Positions 14,441 through 54,752 of a stretch of 64,000 nucleotides of DNA are shown here, piece by piece (the first letter of the stretch is position 1; each line of letters begins with the position of its first letter). The stretch comes from Escherichia coli (GTDB lineage: Bacteria > Pseudomonadota > Gammaproteobacteria > Enterobacterales > Enterobacteriaceae). The stretch lies in assembly GCF_024298765.1 (NCBI RefSeq), contig NZ_CP101210.1; one strand, given 5' to 3'. A program made the position numbers and the translations under genes. The notes beneath the pieces were generated by a model, which saw only the letters and a list, made by a program, of their open reading frames with translations, was not told the DNA's origin and did not search any database.

Positions 14441-14624
14441 AAAAAAGCCCGCATCAGCGGGCTTTAATGTCATAGGGAGTCGCGACTCCGTTGCGTATCC
14501 TTTTTTGTCTCCTCACCGTCTGGTCGGTGTCCTGCTGAGACTTATAACTTCCTGTTTTTGTTGGTGTAGTCCTTACACCGTCCAATCATGATTGGTGGAG
14601 CTGGCGGGAGTTGAACCCGTGTCC
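14441..14624. repeat. Left att-associated direct repeat: displaced copy of the ssrA 3' end (~33 nt) plus ~150 bp of ssrA-downstream sequence
   Basis: ~90% identical by eye to 54238-54423; homology to ssrA stops at 14624, after which AT-rich prophage sequence begins. Confidence 0.7.
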
Positions 14625-15050: not shown

Positions 15051-15866
15051 ATGTTGCAGCCAGCAAAAAAAGCATCAGTTATTAGCGCGCGGCTAACGAA
15101 ATACCTCAAAGATGGAGTGAGGATTGATGACTTTAGCTTTAGAAGGATGTTACGTGAGATTGAAGCACTTAGAGATCCTGTCTCTGAGGACTATCTTTTA
15201 GCGTTGGTCTATGGTGCACATGGCCAAGTGAATGAGGCGATAGGCTTCTTTGAGCGTTCCTTGCAGGTATGCCATAATGAGGTTGTTGCAAAGAATTTTC
15301 TTGTTTTCTTGTCAGATTACGGTACGTTGAAGAAAAGCTTTGAAACAAGCATTAAGCTTGCTGAAAGCTTCATATCCCCGTTTATTTATCTTCAAGCTTA
15401 TGAAAACTCCCTCTTTATGGGGAAGATGGCGTTGGCGGAGAAGTATTTCCAGTCATACTCTAAATTGTTCGGAGATAAGGAGCCTGAAAAAATGGACAAC
15501 AATCTTGATGAAGTTGTTTCCCAGGTCGAATCCTTTAAGCAACGTGCCGATCTTTCTGGTTTAGAATATGAACTTATTTTCAATAATGTAGCCAATGTCA
15601 TGGATTCTCAGAAGGTTCATCTTTCGGGAATGCGTTTTTATAATATTTCGGAAGAGAAAGTGAATGCGATTGTATTCATGACAAAGTCTTCTGATGCTGA
15701 ACAAATCGCTGATATGAATATTGAGCTTGCTTTTTCAATGGCTGAGCACGATTGTTTAGTCGGTAAAGATTTTGCTGTTTGGTTTGAATGTAAAGACACA
15801 CATATTGAGCAGAATGCTATCTCCGAATTAGGTCTGATTACCCGGAGGGTTGCACATGCCGGTTAA
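15051..15866 (+). CDS. Hypothetical protein (271 aa), first gene of a two-gene cargo operon beside attL/int; function unknown
   Basis: Clean ORF, soluble and helical-looking, no motif I recognise; AT-rich by eye; AT-rich upstream leader. Confidence 0.55.
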   Translation: MLQPAKKASVISARLTKYLKDGVRIDDFSFRRMLREIEALRDPVSEDYLLALVYGAHGQVNEAIGFFERSLQVCHNEVVAKNFLVFLSDYGTLKKSFETSIKLAESFISPFIYLQAYENSLFMGKMALAEKYFQSYSKLFGDKEPEKMDNNLDEVVSQVESFKQRADLSGLEYELIFNNVANVMDSQKVHLSGMRFYNISEEKVNAIVFMTKSSDAEQIADMNIELAFSMAEHDCLVGKDFAVWFECKDTHIEQNAISELGLITRRVAHAG

Positions 15867-16239
15867 TAGTCAAGATTTTCTCGGTTTTGCAAAAGACTGT
15901 CATCAACGTAATGACGAAATCGGCTATCGAAATGCTATAGCAAGATCCTACTATGGCGCTTACCATCATGTCTTGCCTTGTATGGTAAACGGGCCGAAAG
16001 ACAGTCATCAGGGGCTAATCAATTATTTGCAGGGCGATGCTTCAAGAGGAAGTGAAGTATATGAAGCTAGATATCTAAAAGGGATTAGTTTTATCCTGAG
16101 TCAACTTAAAGCTCAGAGGATTGTTGCAGACTATCGACTTGATCAATCGGTCACTTCTAAACAGTCTGAAGTTGCGATTCTAACAACTGAGAGGCTCTTT
16201 GCTAAGTGTACGGAAATGCTTAAATCGAGAGCCTCCTAA
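15850..16239 (+). CDS. Hypothetical protein (129 aa), overlaps upstream gene by 17 nt; contains an R-x6-H dyad (RSYYGAYHH)
   Basis: Overlapping start implies translational coupling; followed by a terminator hairpin at 16246-16270. Confidence 0.5.
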   Translation: MHMPVNSQDFLGFAKDCHQRNDEIGYRNAIARSYYGAYHHVLPCMVNGPKDSHQGLINYLQGDASRGSEVYEARYLKGISFILSQLKAQRIVADYRLDQSVTSKQSEVAILTTERLFAKCTEMLKSRAS

Positions 16240-16245
16240 TTGATA

Positions 16246-16270
16246 AAGCCACTTAAGTGGCTTTTTTTGT
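16246..16270. terminator. Hairpin plus T-run between the convergent cargo operon and int
   Basis: aaagccacttaagtggcttttttt. Confidence 0.6.
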
Positions 16271-17425
16271 GATATTGCTGGTCGTATTACCGTCATATTC
16301 CTTTAAATATAAACCATAATGACGAAATAACATTTCCGGCCCTTTATGCCCCATTTGAGCTGCAAGCCAAAACAGGTTTGCTCCCCGGCTGATATGGCGG
16401 GTGGCGAATGTATGCCTAGTTTGATATGGATTTCTGTAACGAATACCTGCTTTTCGCAATGTTGGCACCCATGCTTTTTTCCTGATTGCATCAGCACTTG
16501 CCCAAGGCTTATTGGTCTTTGGATCTTCAAAGACAGTAGTATCCTTCATGAATGTAAATGGCTTCTGATTTATCAGCGCCAACATTGCCTCTTCTGTCAG
16601 TTCAACTTTCCGAGTACCTGCTTTTGTCTTTGTCCCTTTGATAACACCGACAACACTTGCGCTCTGGACATGGGCAGTTTTTCCAACAAAGTCGATATCA
16701 CGCCATCGAAGGGCACATAATTCAGAACTACGCAGGCCTGTATGTATAGCGAACCGGAACAGATTTTCCCATTGTTTGTTTCCGGCTGCTGCTAGTAATG
16801 CATCAACTTCTGCTGGTGATAGCGGATCAACTACGTAGCTGCTTTCTGCTTCTGACTTATCACTTTGGTAGCGCGAAGCTGTTACTAACGATACGGGGTT
16901 AATTTGAAGTACCCCATCGGTCACGGCTTCATCAAGTGCTGACCGCAGGAAAGATAACTGGTTGCGAATTGTTTTTAAGGTCGTTTTCTGATTTTGAATC
17001 CACGCTTTCAGGGTTGCTGGTGTTAATTCACTTGCAGGGCAAATGTGAAGTGAGGCTAACGCACTACGGCATTTTTTATAGCCACCAATCGTAGAGGGTG
17101 AAAGTTTTCTTGTTTCGCAGATTTCAAGATATTCGTCCAGGTACATCTTTACCGTTTTGCCTGCAGCAGCATTACCAAAAATTTTCAAACGAGCAGAACG
17201 GGGAAAATATTCTGCATAAATGAATGTTCCCCTTTCGATCTTATTATGGATTTCGCCGAGTGTACGCTCGGCGTATTTAATGTTCTTTGGTGTTACTTCC
17301 AGATTGGAAAGCGGCTCACGACATCTAACTCCTTTGTAGGTGAAAGTTATATTGATCGTTTCTCCCTGGCGGTGTTTCCTGATTGTTACGCCGCGCGGTA
17401 GTTTGAGCAGTTTTGTCTGGCCCAT
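16253..17425 (-). CDS. int: Phage integrase, tyrosine recombinase family
   Basis: 390-aa ORF with C-terminal catalytic region (...HTGLRSSELCALRWRDID...RHTFATRHISRGANLFWLAAQMGH...); adjacent to xis and the att region. Confidence 0.85.
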   Translation of the reverse strand: MGQTKLLKLPRGVTIRKHRQGETINITFTYKGVRCREPLSNLEVTPKNIKYAERTLGEIHNKIERGTFIYAEYFPRSARLKIFGNAAAGKTVKMYLDEYLEICETRKLSPSTIGGYKKCRSALASLHICPASELTPATLKAWIQNQKTTLKTIRNQLSFLRSALDEAVTDGVLQINPVSLVTASRYQSDKSEAESSYVVDPLSPAEVDALLAAAGNKQWENLFRFAIHTGLRSSELCALRWRDIDFVGKTAHVQSASVVGVIKGTKTKAGTRKVELTEEAMLALINQKPFTFMKDTTVFEDPKTNKPWASADAIRKKAWVPTLRKAGIRYRNPYQTRHTFATRHISRGANLFWLAAQMGHKGPEMLFRHYGLYLKEYDGNTTSNITKKAT

Positions 17426-20971: not shown

Positions 20972-21625
20972 TCAAAAATCCATTATTACTTGTTTGACAA
21001 GACCAACTATTCTGCAGTTCTCACCGCATTCAATAGTTTTATAGTTAGGATTTAGTGGGACGAGATACCTGTTCGGCCAGTCCTCAACAAATTTTTTGAG
21101 TGTCGCTTCTTGCCCACCATTGATATGGGCAACAACGATTTTTCCGTTAATACACTCTGTATCAATAATATCTGGCTCTACGATAACGATAGAACCTTCT
21201 GGTATCGATGGTGAGCCGAGGGGATTGGTCATTGAATCACCACGGACCCGTAGTGCAAATGCCATTTCTGATACAAGGGCGGTAGTATAAACCCACTCTT
21301 CAGCATCTTCTTTCCTGACACCAGGCTCCGTCATTGTCCATGAACCCGCCTGAACCCACGAGATGAGGGGGACTTTTTTAACTGCGAATATTTCAGGTTT
21401 TAGATTTATCTTTGGTTCAGGCGAGCCTTTTCCGCTAACAAGCCACAGAGGATCGCATTTAAGTGCGTTGGCTAGGGCTTGAAGGTTGGCTCCATTTGGT
21501 TGGTAGTCGTCCTTTTCCCATCCAGTAACCGTGACACGGTTCACACCAGTCAAATCAGCCAGTGCTTGTTGTGTCAGGTTCAGTTCTTTTCGCCTTTGGC
21601 GAATACGATCACTCATGTTCATCAT
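20972..21625 (-). CDS. CI-like prophage repressor (N-terminal XRE HTH, C-terminal S24 LexA-like peptidase domain)
   Basis: 217-aa ORF; HTH (LTQQALADLTGVNRVTVTGWE) and S24 motifs (RVRGDSMTNP ... KKF); divergent from a cro-like gene. Confidence 0.8.
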   Translation of the reverse strand: MMNMSDRIRQRRKELNLTQQALADLTGVNRVTVTGWEKDDYQPNGANLQALANALKCDPLWLVSGKGSPEPKINLKPEIFAVKKVPLISWVQAGSWTMTEPGVRKEDAEEWVYTTALVSEMAFALRVRGDSMTNPLGSPSIPEGSIVIVEPDIIDTECINGKIVVAHINGGQEATLKKFVEDWPNRYLVPLNPNYKTIECGENCRIVGLVKQVIMDF

Positions 21626-21688
21626 GTAGGCAATCCTACCACATGCTCATGTAGGATTCTTGACATTGATATGTTGGATATCCTACAT
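21624..21688. promoter_or_regulatory. Right operator region (OR1-3-like) with divergent PRM/PR promoters
   Basis: Three operator copies (atgtaggcaatcctac, atgtaggattcttgac, gttggatatcctacat); ttgaca -35 at 21660-21665; cI ATG abuts the operator. Confidence 0.6.
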
Positions 21689-21720
21689 TTCTGCTTAACG
21701 TAATTTAACGGGAGACAGAA

Positions 21721-22865: not shown

Positions 22866-22918
22866 AGGTCGGTCATGAGCCTGTTAATGACATCCCAGCC
22901 CATTGTGATAAATCGTGA
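22706..22918 (+). CDS. Hypothetical protein (70 aa); may be the 3' part of a frameshifted gene
   Basis: Overlaps the upstream ORF and the replication-gene start. Confidence 0.3.
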
Positions 22919-23867
22919 TCTTGCATGCCGTATTGGTCTGAATGAGGCAATTGTGTTGCAGCAGCTTCATTACTGGCTGAATGAAACGAATTCAGGCACT
23001 GAGCATGGCGGAATTCGCTGGGTTTATAACACGACAGAACAGTGGCTGGAGCAGTTTCCGTTCTGGTCAGAGTCCACTCTGAAACGCACATTTGCAAGCC
23101 TGAAATCACTTGGGGTTTTGCGTCGCGAGCAACTCAATAAATCGAAGCGTGACATGACCAACTTCTACACGATCAACTATGAAAGTGAGCTTTTAGAAGA
23201 GGTCAAAGTGAACGAATCCATCAGGTCAAAATGCACTTCTCCATCGGGTCAAAGTGACCTGATGGATGAGCGCAAAATGACACGATCCATTGGTTCAAAA
23301 CGACACGCTGTCATCGGGTCAAAATGGCCCAATGATCTTACAGAGAATACAACAGAGATTACTACAGAGAATAAAACCTCTTCTCGTCCGGACGCTTCGC
23401 AACCGGACACGCAGATGGCTGAACAGGATTTTTTAACTCGCCATCCTGATGCGGTTGTATTCAGCCCTAAAAAGCGCCAGTGGGGAACGCAGGATGATTT
23501 GACCTGCGCACAGTGGCTCTGGAAAAAAATCATCGCTCTGTACGAGCAGGCCGCCGAATGTGACGGCGAAGTGGTACGTCCTAAAGAACCGAACTGGACA
23601 GCCTGGGCAAACGAAATTCGCCTGATGTGTGTACAGGATGGGCGTACTCACAAACAAATCTGCGAGATGTACAGCCGCGTCAGCCGCGATCCGTTCTGGT
23701 GCCGTAACGTGCTCAGCCCGTCGAAGCTGCGGGAAAAATGGGATGAGCTTTCCCTGCGCTTATCGCCGTCCGTCAGCACGTACACAGAAAAACGCGAAGA
23801 TCCGTACTTCAAAGCCAGTTACGACAACGTGGACTACAGCCAGATCCCGGCAGGATTCAGGGGGTGA
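22875..23867 (+). CDS. Phage replication initiator (lambda O-like / replisome organiser) with embedded origin iterons
   Basis: 330-aa ORF with N-terminal DNA-binding-like region; iterons inside the coding sequence as in lambda O. Confidence 0.7.
   Translation: MSLLMTSQPIVINRDLACRIGLNEAIVLQQLHYWLNETNSGTEHGGIRWVYNTTEQWLEQFPFWSESTLKRTFASLKSLGVLRREQLNKSKRDMTNFYTINYESELLEEVKVNESIRSKCTSPSGQSDLMDERKMTRSIGSKRHAVIGSKWPNDLTENTTEITTENKTSSRPDASQPDTQMAEQDFLTRHPDAVVFSPKKRQWGTQDDLTCAQWLWKKIIALYEQAAECDGEVVRPKEPNWTAWANEIRLMCVQDGRTHKQICEMYSRVSRDPFWCRNVLSPSKLREKWDELSLRLSPSVSTYTEKREDPYFKASYDNVDYSQIPAGFRG
23199..23326. repeat. Origin-type iterons: five direct repeats of ~CATCRGGTCAAARTG inside the replication gene
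   Basis: gaggtcaaagtg, ccatcaggtcaaaatg, ccatcgggtcaaagtg, ccattggttcaaaacg, tcatcgggtcaaaatg, followed by an A/T-rich stretch. Confidence 0.7.
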
Positions 23868-23869
23868 TC

Positions 23870-23962
23870 ATGAGTCTTTTGAATGAAGTTCAGAAATTCA
23901 TTGAAGCCCATCCGGGGTGTACTTCCGGAGACATTGCGGATGCTTTTTACGTGGGGGCTTAA
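23870..23962 (+). CDS. Possible small coupled ORF (30 aa) between the replication gene and the methylase
   Basis: ATG overlaps the upstream stop; TAATG overlap with the methylase start; found by hand. Confidence 0.3.
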   Translation: MSLLNEVQKFIEAHPGCTSGDIADAFYVGA

Positions 23963-24615
23963 TGAGTAATAAATATTGTCAGGCGCTGGTGGAGCTGCGG
24001 AACAAACCATCCCATGAACTGAAGGAGGTGGGCGATCAGTGGCGCACGCCGGACAGCATTTTCTGGGGAATTAACACCTTGTTTGGCCCGTTTGTTCTGG
24101 ATCTGTTCACTGACGGTGATAACGCCAAATGTGCCGCGTATTACACGGCGGAAGACAACGCGCTGGCGCATGACTGGTCAGAACGCCTTGCGGAGCTTAA
24201 AGGTGCTGCCTTTGGCAATCCCCCATACAGTCGCGCCAGTCAGCATGAGGGGCAATACATCACCGGCATGCGTTACATCATGAAACATGCCAGTGCCATG
24301 CGTGATAAGGGCGGGCGCTATGTTTTCCTGATCAAAGCTGCCACCAGCGAAGTGTGGTGGCCGGAAGATGCGGACCATATTGCTTTTATTCGCGGGCGTA
24401 TTGGTTTTGAACTGCCTGCCTGGTTTATCCCGAAAGATGAGAAGCAGGTGCCGATAGGCGCTTTCTTCGCTGGTGCTATTGCTGTTTTTGACAAGACCTG
24501 GAAGGGACCGGCAATCAGCTACATCGGGCGCGATGAACTTGAGGCATGTGGTGAGGCCTTTCTGGCGCAGGTTCGCCAGCAGGCAGAAAAACTGGTCAGG
24601 GAGATGGTGGCATGA
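23962..24615 (+). CDS. Phage-type DNA N6-adenine methyltransferase (Dam-like, orphan)
   Basis: Start at MSNKYCQALVEL (track ORF starts at 23917); contains the FGNPPY motif, a D/N-PP-Y/F-type catalytic signature. Confidence 0.7.
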   Translation: MSNKYCQALVELRNKPSHELKEVGDQWRTPDSIFWGINTLFGPFVLDLFTDGDNAKCAAYYTAEDNALAHDWSERLAELKGAAFGNPPYSRASQHEGQYITGMRYIMKHASAMRDKGGRYVFLIKAATSEVWWPEDADHIAFIRGRIGFELPAWFIPKDEKQVPIGAFFAGAIAVFDKTWKGPAISYIGRDELEACGEAFLAQVRQQAEKLVREMVA

Positions 24616-25001
24616 AGCTGATCCTGCCTTTTCCGCCCAGCGTGAACACGTACTGGCGACACCCCAACAAAGGGGCGTTTGCTGGTAAGAGCCTGATAAG
24701 CGCGGCGGGGCGAAAATTCCAGAGCGCGGCGTGCGCAGCAATAGTTGAGCAGTTACGTCGTCTGCCGAAACCAACGTCGGCACCTGCTTCAGTGGAGATC
24801 GTGTTGTTTCCTCCGGATAACCGGATCCGCGATCTGGACAACTATAACAAGGCGCTGTTTGACGCCCTGACCCACGCGGGTGTGTGGGAAGACGACAGTC
24901 AGGTGAAAAGAATGCTGGTGGAGTGGGGACCGGTTATCCCGGGAGGGAAGGTCGAGATCACTATCAGTAAGTACGAGAAAACGGCGGGTGCAGCCGCCTG
25001 A
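24612..25001 (+). CDS. rusA: RusA-family Holliday junction resolvase
   Basis: 129-aa ORF MKLILPFPPSVNTYWRH...DLDNYNKALFDALTHAGVWEDDSQV. Confidence 0.8.
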   Translation: MKLILPFPPSVNTYWRHPNKGAFAGKSLISAAGRKFQSAACAAIVEQLRRLPKPTSAPASVEIVLFPPDNRIRDLDNYNKALFDALTHAGVWEDDSQVKRMLVEWGPVIPGGKVEITISKYEKTAGAAA

Positions 25002-25020
25002 TTAAGAGGAGAAACGAAGT

Positions 25021-25818
25021 ATGAATAATCTGATGGTCATTGATGGTATTGAAGTTCGTCGTGATGCTTATGGTCGTTACAGCCTGAACGATCTGCACAG
25101 GTCTGCCGGTTCTCTGGATAAGCATAAGCCTGCATTCTGGCTCCGCAATGAGCAAACTGAACGTTTAATAAGCGAGTTGCAGATTTGCAACTCGGTCAAT
25201 ATAGAGCCAGTTAACGTTATTCGTGGCGGAAATAACCAGGGGACGTATGTCTGCAAAGAACTGGTGTATGCCTATGCAATGTGGATCAGCCCGTCATTCC
25301 ATCTGAAGGTGATCCGTACTTTCGACATGGTAACCAGCGCACCGGAAAAATTATCCGGACAGGCTGCTGACAAGATGCAGGCTGGTGTGATCCTGCTGGA
25401 CTTTATGCGCCGGGAATTAAACCTGTCTAACTCATCAGTGCTTGGAGCCTGTCAGAAGCTTCAGGAGGCTGTTGGCTTACCGAATCTGGCACCGCGCTAT
25501 GCCATTGATGCTCCTGCTGATGCACTCGATGGCTCAAGCCGCCCGACACTGTCACTGAGTGCACTGCTGAAGCAGTATGGTATCCGCCTGACAGCTAATC
25601 AGGCATATCACCAGATGGCGAAGCTGGGGATCGTTGAACAACGTGAACGATACAGCCGCACTGCGATTAACAACATCAAAAAATTCTGGTCGCTGACGGC
25701 GAAAGGCTGCATGTTCGGCAAGAACATCACCAGTCCCGCAAATCCGCGCGAGACGCAGCCGCATTTCTTCGAATCCCGATTCCCTGAGCTGTTAAAGCTG
25801 CTCGATACCGTTCATTGA
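25021..25818 (+). CDS. KilA-N-domain protein (antirepressor-like)
   Basis: N-terminal pattern (IDGIEVRRDAYGRYSLNDLHRSAG...KPAFWLRNEQT) typical of KilA-N. Confidence 0.6.
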   Translation: MNNLMVIDGIEVRRDAYGRYSLNDLHRSAGSLDKHKPAFWLRNEQTERLISELQICNSVNIEPVNVIRGGNNQGTYVCKELVYAYAMWISPSFHLKVIRTFDMVTSAPEKLSGQAADKMQAGVILLDFMRRELNLSNSSVLGACQKLQEAVGLPNLAPRYAIDAPADALDGSSRPTLSLSALLKQYGIRLTANQAYHQMAKLGIVEQRERYSRTAINNIKKFWSLTAKGCMFGKNITSPANPRETQPHFFESRFPELLKLLDTVH

Positions 25819-25819
25819 G

Positions 25820-26815
25820 GTGACCGTGAGAGCACTACTGACCCCTGAAATTGCCCCGCGTATGGGGATCGTATTGTTCAGACCAGGTTCAGAGCTGATG
25901 CCCTTGTTTATGCAGGGGCGTGTCCTGCTGGAGCCTGAGCCGGAACGTTATTCATCTTTCGCCAGTGGTGCCGTTCCGGCGGCATCACAACCGCTGGCGG
26001 ATGATCCTGCCGTTCGGGCCGTGTTCCGCAATGAGGCAGTGATCCGTCGTGCTGGTGGCGTGGAATGTCTTGAAAGCTGGTTACTTCGTGAAAAAGGCTG
26101 CCAGTGGCCTCATTCCGGCTGGCACAGCGAGAACATGACAACAATGCGACACGCTCCGGGCGCAATCCGTCTGTGCTGGCACTGCGATAACCAGCTGCGC
26201 GATCAGTTCACGGAACGGCTGGAATCAATGGCAACGGATAACTGTGCCCGCTGGGTGTTGTCTGTTGTGCGTCGGGATCTCGGTTTTGATGACAGTCATG
26301 TTGTGACAATGCCGGAACTGTGCTGGTGGCTGATTCGTAATGATCTGGCGGATGCCTTACCGGAAAGTGCAGCCCGTAAGGCACTGAGATTACCGAAGCC
26401 TGTTGTGCCGTCTGTTACCCGGGAAAGTGACCTTGTGCCTTCGGTTCCTGCCACCAGCATCATCCAGGATAAGGCGAAAAAGGTGCTGGCGCTGAAAGTG
26501 GATCCGGAGTCGCCGGAGTCTTTTATGTTACGCCCAAAACGTCGCCGCTGGGTTAATGAAAAGTACACGCGCTGGGTTAAGACACAGCCGTGTGCATGTT
26601 GTGGAAAGCCCGCTGATGATCCCCACCACCTGATAGGTCACGGTCAGGGTGGAATGGGAACAAAAGCGCATGACCTCTTTGTGTTGCCTTTGTGCAGAAA
26701 GCATCACGACGAGCTGCATGCGGATACCGTGGCATTTGAAGAGAAGTATGGCTCTCAGCTGGAGCTGATATTTCGTTTTATCGATCGTGCGCTGGCAATT
26801 GGCGTATTGGCGTAA
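25820..26815 (+). CDS. DUF968 (YdfU-like) prophage protein with C-terminal Cys/His cluster
   Basis: C-terminal CACCGKPADDPHHL...CRKHHDELH motif. Confidence 0.55.
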   Translation: MTVRALLTPEIAPRMGIVLFRPGSELMPLFMQGRVLLEPEPERYSSFASGAVPAASQPLADDPAVRAVFRNEAVIRRAGGVECLESWLLREKGCQWPHSGWHSENMTTMRHAPGAIRLCWHCDNQLRDQFTERLESMATDNCARWVLSVVRRDLGFDDSHVVTMPELCWWLIRNDLADALPESAARKALRLPKPVVPSVTRESDLVPSVPATSIIQDKAKKVLALKVDPESPESFMLRPKRRRWVNEKYTRWVKTQPCACCGKPADDPHHLIGHGQGGMGTKAHDLFVLPLCRKHHDELHADTVAFEEKYGSQLELIFRFIDRALAIGVLA

Positions 26816-26828
26816 GTGGAGAACGAGC

Positions 26829-27581
26829 ATGAACCTTGAAGCCTTACCAAAATATTACTCCCCAAAATCTCCAAAATTGAGCGATGACGCACCGGCGACA
26901 GGCTCTGGTGGTTTAACAATTACGGATGTAATGGCTGCGCAGGGGATGGTGCAGTCGAAAGCACCGCTTGGGTTTGCCTTATTCCTGGCAAAAGTTGGTG
27001 TTCAGGATCCTCAGTTTGCGATTGAAGGTCTGCTCAATTACGCGATGGCACTGGATAACCCGACATTGAATAAATTGAGTGAAGAAACCCGGCTACAGAT
27101 CATTCCTTACCTTGTGAATTTTGCCTTTGCTGATTATTCCAGGTCTGCGGCAAGTAAGGCTCGCTGTGAGCATTGTGCTGGTACTGGATTTCATAATGTA
27201 TTGCGCGAGGTGGTGAAACACTCCAGAAGCGGGGAATCTGTTATCAAGGAAGAGTGGGTGAAGGAACTATGTCAGCATTGTCATGGTAAGGGAGAAGTCA
27301 GCACAGCGTGCAGAGGGTGTAAGGGTAAAGGTATTGTCCTGGATGAAAAAAGAACCCGGCTTCATGGTACGCCTGTTTATAAGATTTGTGGGCGTTGCAA
27401 TGGTAACCGTTTTAGCCGTTTACCAACCACACTGGCGCGGCATCATGTCCAGAAGCTGGTACCAGACCTGACGGATTATCAGTGGTACAAAGGATATGCA
27501 GATGTCATTGATAAACTGGTTACAAAGTGCTGGCAGGAAGAAGCATATGCAGAGACACAATTGAGAAAAGTGACAAGATAA
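26829..27581 (+). CDS. Late-gene antiterminator Q (zinc-binding)
   Basis: CEHCAGTG...CQHCHGKG...CRGCKGKG Cys clusters; immediately upstream of a promoter plus terminator pair and the lysis genes. Confidence 0.7.
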   Translation: MNLEALPKYYSPKSPKLSDDAPATGSGGLTITDVMAAQGMVQSKAPLGFALFLAKVGVQDPQFAIEGLLNYAMALDNPTLNKLSEETRLQIIPYLVNFAFADYSRSAASKARCEHCAGTGFHNVLREVVKHSRSGESVIKEEWVKELCQHCHGKGEVSTACRGCKGKGIVLDEKRTRLHGTPVYKICGRCNGNRFSRLPTTLARHHVQKLVPDLTDYQWYKGYADVIDKLVTKCWQEEAYAETQLRKVTR

Positions 27582-27612: not shown

Positions 27613-27715
27613 TTGCATTTTTCAAAAAATCTGGTTAGGATTCTCCTAACGATGGGCTTTGTATGTCTGCCGTTAACGAAATCATAACAAACCTCGCTTC
27701 GGCGGGGTTTTTGCT
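27613..27715 (+). promoter_or_regulatory. Late promoter PR'-like with downstream tR'-like terminator (Q-utilisation region)
   Basis: ttgcat -35-like hexamer at 27613; terminator hairpin cctcgc-ttcg-gcgggg plus ttttt at 27690-27715. Confidence 0.55.
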
Positions 27716-51478: not shown

Positions 51479-52912
51479 ATGTCTGAATTTGAAGTGTTGG
51501 CACAGCATCTGCTGAAGGAAGCCGAGGCGGAAGAAAAGCTGCGACAGGAAAATGATAAAAAGCTTATCGAGAAAGTGCTGGAAATCTATGATCAGAAGTA
51601 TGTGGCTGAATTACTGAGAAAAGTCGGAAAAAATGAGTGGAGCCGTGAAACCATTAACCGCTGGATTAATGGCAAGTGTTTACCAAAATCGTTGACTTCA
51701 GTAGAAGAGTCTCTTCTGCGTAAGATGCTACCAGAACCACCTGCAAACCATCCGGAATATGCTTTCCGCTTCATTGACTTATTTGCTGGAATTGGAGGGA
51801 TACGGAAAGGTTTTGAGGCCATTGGAGGCCAGTGTGTTTTTACCAGTGAATGGAATAAAGATGCTGTGCGTACATACAAGGCCAACTGGTTTAACGATGA
51901 ACAGGTGCATAAATTCAATCTCGATATTCGGGAAGTCACGCTGAGTGATAAAACCGATGTATTGGAAACGGATGCTTATGCATATATTGATGAGCATGTG
52001 CCGGATCATGATGTGCTTCTTGCGGGGTTCCCGTGCCAGCCATTTAGCCTTGCTGGTGTTAGTAAGAAAAACTCACTTGGTCGTGCGCATGGTTTTGAAT
52101 GTGAAGCACAAGGAACACTTTTTTTTGACGTGGCACGTATTATACGAGCAAAAAAACCGGCAATTTTTGTGCTGGAAAATGTCAAAAATCTGAAGAGCCA
52201 TGATAAGGGTAAAACTTTCAAAGTCATTATGGAGACCCTTGACGAGCTGGGCTACGAAGTTGCCGATGCTGCAGAAATGGGAAAAAACGATCCAAAGATT
52301 ATCGATGGGAAGCATTTTTTGCCTCAGCATCGTGAACGCATTGTTCTGGTCGGATTTAGACGAGATCTGAATATTCACAAGGGGTTTACCTTGCGTGATA
52401 TCAGTCGTTTTTATCCGGAACACCGCCCATCATTTGGTGAATTGCTGGAGCCTGTAGTCGACAGTAAATATATACTTACGCCAAAACTATGGGAGTACCT
52501 TTATAACTACGCCAAAAAGCATGCAGCCAAGGGGAATGGTTTTGGCTTTGGGTTGGTCAATCCTGAGAATAAGGAAAGCATTGCACGCACACTTTCTGCC
52601 AGATATCACAAAGACGGATCAGAAATTCTTATTGATCGTGGTTGGGATATGGCAACGGGAGAGGCTGACTTTATGAATGAGAGTAATCAGGCTCGTCGAC
52701 CACGCAGGCTGACTCCCCGAGAGTGCGCACGCCTTATGGGATTTGAAAAACCTGGAGGGAAACCATTCCGTATTCCGGTTTCAGATACTCAGTCATATCG
52801 GCAGTTCGGTAACTCAGTTGTGGTGCCAGTATTTGAAGCTGTTGCCAGACTTCTGGAACCCTATATCCTCAAAGCTGTTTCTGCTGATGCTGGTAAGACT
52901 GGGCAGCCTTGA
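51479..52912 (+). CDS. DNA cytosine-5 methyltransferase, Dcm/M.EcoRII family (predicted CCWGG)
   Basis: [12 protein letters not shown] (motif I), [10 protein letters not shown] (PCQ, motif IV), ENV (motif VI), QFGNSV (motif X); collinear with recalled Dcm; alternative start at 51437. Confidence 0.85.
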
Positions 52913-52946: not shown

Positions 52947-54161
52947 CTATGATAGTTCAGCGTAAAGCTCTATCAGCTCAGTAATGAATGCTCCGAGCGT
53001 TATTAATTCTTCTCTAACTGCTTCTGGGTATTTTTTATGTAAAGTTGATGGTACAACGAGTCTGACACCCGCATCTTTCATTTCTCGGTATTGTGCTGAA
53101 GAAACACCTTCTTGCAGTGTAAATAAATGTACCTGATGGATTTTATCTGCTTCATTCAGTATCTGACGCCAGCGATCTTTGCAGGTGGTCTTTACTGCCA
53201 GCATACGTAAGTTTTCTACAGGAAATTCAACGTTATGATATGCCTCTGCTGAAGGAAACAGGAAATCTGGTTTTTTATTACCTTCAGTAACTGCCTGAGT
53301 GGAGAAATGCCGTAGTCCGTGCTCGATAAAAAGCTTCTCTAGGTGAAGTTCAAGTGATTTGCCTGCCCTTGATTTACGTCGATTACTGACAGAGTTGGCT
53401 AATGCAATAAACTCATCTACAGAATCGAATCCTTTCTTAATAATATCAAGAACATGTAATTCCTCGACGAGTAGAAAAATATCATACTCGACACGCCGAC
53501 GGTCAATCAGTTGCTCATCTGGATCCTTGGAGTTTTTAGCATAATGGCCAGCAGCATATTGAATAATTTCGTTTCCAGAAGGAAAACGCTTCTTCCAGTC
53601 TTCAGGAATAACATATTTATGATTTACTGGAGTTTGCTGAAGAGACAATCCGCCCAAAATTTGTCCGGCAGGGCCGGAAATTAGGGTTCCAGGTATGATT
53701 TCGCCAATAGCAGACTCGATGATATCCTCTTCATCGGGATTGACGCAGACCCATATATCTACCTCGGAACAGTCAGTGTTCTGTTCGTTTAACCTGAAAG
53801 CAAGAATTGTGAGGGCTCCTGTATTTTCAGGGTTCTGTAATGGACTTCCTCTCCCCCAGCGCGTAATTCTTTTTTCGTTTCGGGTCTTACCAAAATAACG
53901 GTTGTTGTAATAAATTGCGCGTGCTTGGGTATCAGGGCAATCATGGGATGATACATGCGCAGTAAGGAAGACTGAAGGGTTCAGTTCGCGAGTATGATTG
54001 ATAGATGGAAAAAGCTTTTCAACGATATTTGAGGGGATATAAAGTCCGACCTGATGGCCACCTGTTGCGCCTGTGTCGTTTGCAGAAAGGCGTTTGATGT
54101 AGATAAAGTAATTCCCGCTTGCGATATCAAGCAGCCAGTTATGAAAAACCGACATATACAT
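52947..54161 (-). CDS. Type IIE restriction endonuclease, EcoRII family
   Basis: 404-aa ORF (MY)MSVFHNWLLDIASGNYFIYIKRLSANDTGATGGHQVGLYIP..., matching my recollection of EcoRII; convergent with the methyltransferase. Confidence 0.75.
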   Translation of the reverse strand: MYMSVFHNWLLDIASGNYFIYIKRLSANDTGATGGHQVGLYIPSNIVEKLFPSINHTRELNPSVFLTAHVSSHDCPDTQARAIYYNNRYFGKTRNEKRITRWGRGSPLQNPENTGALTILAFRLNEQNTDCSEVDIWVCVNPDEEDIIESAIGEIIPGTLISGPAGQILGGLSLQQTPVNHKYVIPEDWKKRFPSGNEIIQYAAGHYAKNSKDPDEQLIDRRRVEYDIFLLVEELHVLDIIKKGFDSVDEFIALANSVSNRRKSRAGKSLELHLEKLFIEHGLRHFSTQAVTEGNKKPDFLFPSAEAYHNVEFPVENLRMLAVKTTCKDRWRQILNEADKIHQVHLFTLQEGVSSAQYREMKDAGVRLVVPSTLHKKYPEAVREELITLGAFITELIELYAELS

Positions 54162-54237: not shown

Positions 54238-54423
54238 AAAAAGCCCGCATAAGCGGGCTTTTGTGTCACTCGAGAGCCGCGGCTCCTTTGCGTATCCTTT
54301 TTTATCTCCTCACCGTCTGGTCGGTGTCCTGCTGAGACTGCTAACTTCCTGTTTTTGTTGGTGTTGTCCTTACACCGTCCAATCATGATTGGTGGAGCTG
54401 GCGGGAGTTGAACCCGCGTCCGA
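54238..54423. repeat. Right att-associated direct repeat (ssrA 3' end plus phage-borne downstream arm with terminator)
   Basis: ~90% identical by eye to 14441-14624; hairpin plus T-run (read on the minus strand) at 54238-54262. Confidence 0.7.
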
Positions 54424-54752
54424 AATTCCTACATCCTCGGTACTACATGCTTAGTCAGTCTTTACATTCGCTTGCCAGCTGCGGACGGACACGCCACTAA
54501 CAAACTAGCCTGATTAAGTTTTAACGCTTCAACCCCAGGCAGGGCTTCCACGCGATCTCTTTTGGGTTTGACCTCTCTTGATCCCCGTCCTAAGAGCGGA
54601 GGCTAGGGAGAGAGGGCTCTAAGCAGGTTATTAAGCTGCTAAAGCGTAGTTTTCGTCGTTTGCGACTATTTTTTGCGGCTTTTTACGAGGCCAACCGCCC
54701 CTCGGCATGCACCTTGGGTTTCGCAAATCCCGTCGAATCCAGAATCAGCCCC
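54390..54752 (-). ncRNA. ssrA: tmRNA (SsrA)
   Basis: Reverse complement matches the recalled E. coli tmRNA from GGGGCTGATTCTGGATTCGACGGG... to ...GGTTCAACTCCCGCCAGCTCCACCA. Confidence 0.95.

Follow-up and report, generated by a model that had tools for sequence, protein, structure and literature searches.

An intact PF05869-family N6-adenine methyltransferase gene, with GATC as its probable target, in the early operon of an SfV-like Escherichia coli prophage

Introduction

The host Dam of Escherichia coli already methylates GATC sites fully, and a prophage of this species that brings along a Dam-like adenine methylase of its own raises the question of which sequence such an enzyme would methylate, when it would be made and what it would contribute. 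The question is posed by a stretch of 64,000 nucleotides of an E. coli genome (contig NZ_CP101210.1, referred to as the window), in which a preliminary description had noticed two DNA methyltransferases of different chemistry on one prophage, an orphan N6-adenine enzyme in the replication/nin-like region and a C5 enzyme at the cargo end, and had proposed that the orphan enzyme protects phage DNA or modulates host gene expression. The likely answer favoured here is an intact, active, stand-alone methylase of the PF05869 family with a probable GATC target, which would be produced from the early operon upon induction. The dam-like gene as such is an already known and very common prophage gene, to which NCBI's annotation pipeline assigns its name as a matter of routine.

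The dam-like gene and its catalytic motif

The gene belongs to an SfV/SfII-like prophage that spans about 40 kb and is inserted at ssrA, which encodes tmRNA. It runs on the plus strand from 23962 to 24615 (ATG at 23962, TGA at 24613-24615) and encodes an orphan phage N6-adenine DNA methyltransferase of 217 amino acids, as identified from the open reading frame, from its PF05869 and TIGR01712 matches and from PGAP. At the FORC_082 locus, which is 99.9% identical, PGAP gives the same coordinates and length, with the product WP_000066920.1 named 'phage N-6-adenine-methyltransferase'. An alternative GTG start at 23917, giving a protein of 232 amino acids, was dropped. The ATG at 23962 is preferred since both the homologues and the PGAP entry begin there with MSNKYCQ and since this ATG overlaps the upstream stop codon. 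The FGNPPY motif to which the preliminary description had drawn attention is present as catalytic motif IV at residues 84-89 of the 217-residue protein, its codons occupying positions 24211-24228 of the plus strand, and it was located both in the sequence itself and in a family alignment of 26 sequences.

Family assignment, conserved residues and predicted fold

In Pfam the protein matches PF05869 (Dam) with an E-value of 9.1e-46 and 156 bits (cut-off 28.1) over profile positions 2-167 of 169, and in NCBIfam it matches the equivalog model TIGR01712 with an E-value of 2.9e-75 and 251 bits (cut-off 97.05) over the entire profile (positions 1-165 of 165). PHROG 111, 'DNA methyltransferase' (E 1.6e-88), and the PADLOC model for type II methyltransferases, MTase_II, which is matched over its full length (E 3e-156), complete these assignments. 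As far as sequence comparison can tell, these family matches greatly exceed what chance would give. PF05869 was the sole match in the Pfam search at E <=0.01, and neither PF02086 nor MT-A70 was detected in it. Hence the term Dam-like, under which the gene had been described, is appropriate for the chemistry or function of the enzyme and for its fold but not for its family, which is PF05869 in place of the unmatched PF02086.

A different name, 'phosphoadenosine phosphosulfate reductase', is attached to Dam in many RefSeq phage records, including that of SfV (NC_003444). For SfV dam it was rejected, as Pfam shows no such domain, and for the 217-residue protein it is wrong because it stems from a fusion family: PHROG 33262, a fusion profile of 495 positions, is matched by Dam only over its last 210 positions.

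The 26 sequences of the family alignment, which span 24-98% identity and include the Dam proteins of 933W, HP1 and T1, have ten invariant positions, all of which are kept in the prophage protein (D25, W27, T29, D47, N54, P87, P88, Y89, S90 and R146). N86 is nearly invariant (>=90%) in this alignment, the NPPYS stretch corresponding to residues 86-90. The predicted structure (pLDDT 93) has a class I SAM-methyltransferase fold that resembles solved nucleic-acid N6-adenine methyltransferases; among the solved structures searched none is related to the protein in sequence, and the Foldseek matches were weak. About 40 residues lie between the conserved LD/N54 region and NPPY, and no domain intervenes. 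On the strength of the invariant residues and of the fold comparison, the protein is a SAM-dependent amino-methyltransferase of class I, compact in build and with no target-recognition domain set apart from the core.

Comparison with characterised methylases

Among characterised enzymes, the closest parallels are found in the small phage enzymes of PF05869, to which 933W Dam (M.EcoVT2Dam), HP1 Dam and T1 Dam belong, with 30%, 26% and 24% identity to the 217-residue protein, respectively. The common core consists of DxWxTP, LD, N, NPPYS and R-x-x-F, and the dam genes of 933W, HP1 and T1 are likewise orphans located in an early or nin-type phage region. The prophage protein differs from the 933W and HP1 enzymes in being about 40 residues longer, with a long C-terminal helix, and it carries two clade-specific insertions that are absent from the characterised enzymes, one following NPPYSR and the other at about residues 150-165. 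A further orphan, prophage-borne NPPY enzyme, the PamA-type Dam of phage 80, is about 36% identical, the alignment being confined to residues 25-149. Phage 80 Dam, itself a PF05869 member (E 3e-32), agrees with the description of PamA (141 amino acids, NPPY at 64-67, C-terminal Q141).

Methylases of other types are more remote. With the alpha-class Dam enzymes of E. coli and T4 (PF02086) the protein shares no family match, and the structural alignment extends over about 110 residues at 8-9% identity; the alpha-class order, in which a target-recognition domain is inserted before DPPY, is not found in it. M.EcoGI and M.EcoGII are non-specific beta-class enzymes, the latter having 349 amino acids with an N-terminal DPPY, a central recognition domain and a C-terminal FxGxG (PMC5778455), whereas the present protein has 217 amino acids, carries NPPY after a conserved N-terminal region and matches no other Pfam family. 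M.EcoGV and M.EcoPA8orf6770P, MT-A70-like enzymes of Stx phages, are METTL3/14-like, act on 16S rRNA and need a partner (PMC10810198); the prophage protein has no MT-A70 match in Pfam, and its Foldseek probability against METTL3-METTL14 is at most 0.07. What M.EcoGI, M.EcoGII and M.EcoGV do have in common with it is that they are orphan adenine methylases of E. coli prophages, the former two reportedly not being expressed in normal growth (PMC5778455) and M.EcoGV being described as weakly expressed. As close models, M.EcoGI, M.EcoGII, M.EcoGV and M.EcoPA8orf6770P were rejected since they belong to other families, and so was M.EcoMIV of ST131, a PF02086 enzyme (PMC4659465).

Genomic context and expression

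The dam-like gene sits between an O-like replication gene and rusA, which agrees with the replication/nin-like location originally assigned to it. The upstream replication gene (22875-23867, plus strand) gave no match in the Pfam search; its 3' end matches the SfV replication-protein gene, and the matching gene is called 'DNA replication protein O' in other phage records. It is followed by a 30-residue stub (23870-23962, plus strand) of a PerC-like gene, the orf40 of SfV and yfdN of K-12, which was recognised from the sequence and the SfV alignment and which PGAP flags as an incomplete pseudogene in FORC_082. The stop codon of the stub overlaps the dam start (TAATG), and the dam stop in turn overlaps the start (ATGA) of the Holliday-junction resolvase gene rusA (24612-25001, plus strand; PF05866, E 7e-15). 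Downstream of rusA, Pfam and the RefSeq annotation place a KilA-N gene, a DUF968 gene and then the Q-type antiterminator gene (26787-27581, plus strand; PF03589, E 1e-53), with which the early operon holding dam ends. None of the neighbours of dam is a restriction endonuclease according to Pfam and the RefSeq annotation, and for this reason the designation as an orphan is correct; together with the intact reading frame and the family matches, it upholds the earlier reading of the gene as an orphan N6-adenine methylase gene.

Divergently from this rightward operon, a CI-type repressor gene with HTH_3 and Peptidase_S24 domains is encoded on the minus strand (20972-21625; 'LexA family protein' in FORC_082). 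A pR-like promoter candidate, TTGACA-18-TACATT, at 21660-21689 on the plus strand is a consensus match and the sole rightward sigma-70 match of 10/12 upstream of dam, which it precedes by about 2.3 kb; a CII-like gene, recognised by Pfam, lies between this candidate and the O-like replication gene. The promoter scan gave no promoter-like site between 21689 and dam. On the downstream side, the first strong terminator-like hairpin, again a consensus match, is located at 27689-27710 of the plus strand, the scan of this strand having given no strong site ahead of it. The depositors of SfV had annotated a promoter (-35/-10) for dam, and in the present prophage that stretch was lost together with the deleted part of orf40/yfdN. 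Considering that the scan gave no promoter-like site for dam itself, that its reading frame overlaps with its neighbours and that the sole strong promoter faces the repressor, the gene should be silent in a repressed lysogen. Low-level expression in lysogens is still conceivable, the promoter and terminator calls being consensus matches.

The Q antiterminator is intact in this prophage (264 amino acids with two Antiterm repeats) and frameshifted in the near-identical prophage of FORC_082. Having an intact Q, the prophage may, as far as its sequence suggests, still be inducible.

Distribution and close relatives

Of 5426 complete E. coli genomes, 2701 contain DNA that matches positions 23500-25100 of the window at 95% identity or more, and the same holds for 50 phage records, among them SfV, SfII, mEp460 and Stx2 phages. 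Such wide conservation at this level of identity argues for a maintained function. The Dam proteins of SfV (SfVp41), SfII and mEp460 are 97-98% identical to the prophage protein over 217 residues and are encoded in the same slot, between the replication genes and rusA. Two differences from SfV concern the immediate surroundings of the gene: a clean in-frame deletion of 396 bp inside the PerC-like orf40/yfdN, which keeps the TAATG junction, and the absence of the LexA-like orf42, which in SfV lies between dam and rusA.

The yfdM gene of the K-12 prophage CPS-53 (MG1655 2472112-2472387) matches residues 1-89 at 98% and ends right after NPPY. Owing to this truncation, the 91-residue K-12 YfdM is unlikely to methylate and, judged from its sequence, would not be catalytic. 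The 'putative methylase' yfdM has been reported to promote lytic production of phage SW1 (bioRxiv 413146), a phenotype that would need another explanation given that K-12 YfdM is unlikely to methylate. As a guide to methylation the study was set aside, since it concerns the 91-residue fragment.

Larger proteins with the same domain also occur in the databases. Entries at 98% identity comprise 380-residue PerC+Dam proteins and LexA_DNA_bind+Dam proteins of 292-324 residues, which may be gene-calling artefacts or frameshift fusions, and more distant homologues carry 250-470 extra residues at either end of the Dam domain.

Target sequence

HP1 and T1 Dam are known from the older literature as GATC enzymes. 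GATC is also given as the target of VT2/933W Dam (PMC6602927), and the S. aureus prophage enzyme PamA renders DNA DpnI-sensitive (bioRxiv 2024.04.17.589803). All PF05869 members with a reported target, from phages of Haemophilus, E. coli and Staphylococcus, act on GATC, and because of this GATC is the most parsimonious target for the prophage enzyme and, as judged from its family, a rather probable one. This assignment must be taken with some caution, since the 'Dam/GATC' labels on the very common SfV/yfdM clade rest on homologues that are at most about 36% identical; the nearest enzymes with a known target show 24-36% identity to the 217-residue protein. In the literature on PF05869, M.EcoVT2Dam, yfdM and orphan phage methylases, no target determination was found for the SfV/yfdM clade. 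The frequency of GATC in the prophage reveals neither avoidance nor enrichment (4.25 per kb versus 3.4-3.9 per kb in the host flanks), and the CCWGG counts of prophage and host flanks likewise gave no signal, so that sequence statistics do not independently back the GATC assignment.

The two clade-specific insertions could alter DNA recognition. That the SfV/yfdM clade recognises a site other than GATC or has relaxed specificity seems, on sequence grounds, a minor likelihood. If it were so, an otherwise silent adenine-methylating activity would reside in about half of all E. coli genomes and be released upon prophage induction, and progeny phage DNA would be marked against restriction or defence systems that have so far gone unrecognised.

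Role of the methylase and alternative explanations

According to the favoured explanation, the enzyme would be a small phage Dam of the HP1/T1/VT2 type and the full-length form of the yfdM fragment, which with SAM and its NPPY loop would methylate a flipped-out adenine at N6, with GATC as the most probable site. Its gene would belong to an early rightward transcription unit under repressor control, consisting of cro/cII-like genes, the replication gene, dam, rusA, further genes and Q, and would be translationally coupled to both of its neighbours. Following infection or SOS induction, the methylase would thus be among the delayed-early products, alongside the replication proteins, and it would be absent from the stable lysogen. 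Fast-replicating phage DNA would then be methylated where the limited host Dam lags behind, and the progeny would be fully GATC-methylated, which would shield them both from restriction enzymes that act on GATC sites lacking methylation and from the MutH-type nicking to which under-methylated DNA is exposed. Going by what is generally known of phage Dam enzymes, methylation of the phage's own DNA is the most likely role of the enzyme discussed here. A GATC target would make the enzyme redundant with host Dam, and the benefit of carrying it is one that we infer.

Of the two roles originally offered for the enzyme, protection of phage DNA is hence a reasonable suggestion, while modulation of host gene expression is unlikely, as the gene is probably repressed in the lysogen and the mark would probably pre-exist. 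The same circumstances affect the methylome comparison of lysogen and non-lysogen that had been suggested as a check: because GATC is already methylated by Dam and the gene is probably repressed, the outcome would probably be negative even with an active enzyme. The preliminary description would have taken the lack of an additional 6mA motif in lysogens as a refutation, which is unsound, since an active GATC enzyme would add none. Methylome comparisons of lysogens with non-lysogens miss induction-specific enzymes that share the host Dam site, and a negative outcome is uninformative with regard to activity.

Four other explanations have to be weighed against an induction-specific GATC methylase. 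An active adenine DNA methyltransferase with another or a relaxed target, which would protect the phage during lytic growth from different or broader restriction systems, would avoid the redundancy with host Dam, and it could draw on the distance of 24-36% identity to the enzymes with known targets as well as on the clade insertions, which lie close to the catalytic loop and within the C-terminal sheet. Promiscuous adenine methylases do occur on E. coli prophages, M.EcoGII being an example from another family (PMC5778455), but this enzyme is of the beta class and of different architecture, and the prophage protein, at its tiny size, lacks a separate target-recognition domain. Since in addition GATC is the target of every PF05869 member for which one is reported, such a deviation is considered unlikely, albeit deserving of some weight. 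The second possibility is the one already encountered, namely expression of the enzyme in the lysogen, with epigenetic reprogramming of host gene expression. It is suggested by PamA, an enzyme of the PF05869 type that alters virulence-gene expression in S. aureus (bioRxiv 2024.04.17.589803), and by the promoter annotated just upstream of dam in the SfV record. However, PamA is expressed in the lysogen, and as S. aureus itself lacks Dam, methylation by PamA is a new mark there that alters gene expression, whereas in E. coli GATC is methylated beforehand. Furthermore, the stretch with the SfV-annotated promoter is deleted here, no promoter-like site occurs from 21689 to dam, the gene is embedded through overlapping start and stop codons in a repressor-controlled operon, and other prophage methylases of E. 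coli, from other families, were found to be silent in lysogens (PMC4659465, PMC5778455). Taken together, a role in the lysogen appears very unlikely.

The two remaining explanations question the activity on DNA itself. The enzyme might mainly methylate RNA or need a partner subunit, as reported for the MT-A70 enzyme of an Stx prophage that was once annotated as a GATC DNA methylase; this is regarded as highly improbable. In the comparison with the partner-dependent M.EcoGV type, MT-A70 went undetected in the protein and the adjacent PerC-like gene is deleted in this prophage. Gene decay, with dam carried along as a non-functional passenger in a defective prophage, could be read from the internal deletion of this same PerC-like gene and from the truncated copies in K-12 and in many database entries. 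Yet the reading frame is full-length and 98% identical to the 217-residue form of the functional phages SfV, SfII and mEp460, the catalytic and invariant residues are all intact, and the neighbouring deletion is in frame with the coupling junction preserved, which leaves decay with hardly any probability. An intact and active GATC methylase made upon induction therefore stays the likely explanation.

The second methylase and the ends of the prophage

The prophage is bounded by an imperfect direct repeat of 178 bp, made up of 27 nt of the ssrA 3' end and about 150 nt beyond ssrA. Its left copy at 14442-14619 holds the displaced ssrA 3' end with the downstream sequence, and its right copy at 54238-54416 overlaps the 3' end of ssrA itself (54390-54752, minus strand). 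The repeat is much longer than the usual att core, which suggests that host DNA was captured or that tandem or replaced ssrA islands have a part in its history. A tyrosine integrase with Arm-DNA-bind_2 and Phage_integrase domains is encoded at 16253-17425 on the minus strand. The structural genes are of the SfV/SfII type, with an HK97-like head and a contractile tail, according to the RefSeq annotation of the near-identical FORC_082 prophage.

The second methylase at the cargo end is indeed a C5 enzyme, and it comes with a nuclease. The C5 cytosine DNA methyltransferase gene (51437-52912, plus strand; PF00145, E 5e-78, and PF18284, DNA_meth_N) forms an EcoRII-type restriction-modification pair with a restriction endonuclease gene at 52947-54161 on the minus strand (EcoRII-N, E 4e-61; EcoRII-C, E 2e-71), the two genes being adjacent, convergent and located inside the att-bounded element. 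Close by, a GIY-YIG protein gene at 50299-51072 on the minus strand shows a full-length match to PD-T4-3, a single-gene anti-phage system (E 5e-140). The GIY-YIG gene and the EcoRII-type pair make up a small defence island of low GC content (43.7%) between the tail-fibre invertase gene (49651-50241) and ssrA. About 240 of the 5426 complete E. coli genomes contain the junction of this island, which occurs in 0 sequenced phage records. At the opposite end of the prophage, two overlapping reading frames without a Pfam or PADLOC match, 15051-15866 and 15850-16239 on the plus strand (271 and 129 amino acids), occupy the interval from the left att site to the integrase gene, a spot that is typical for phage accessory (moron) genes.
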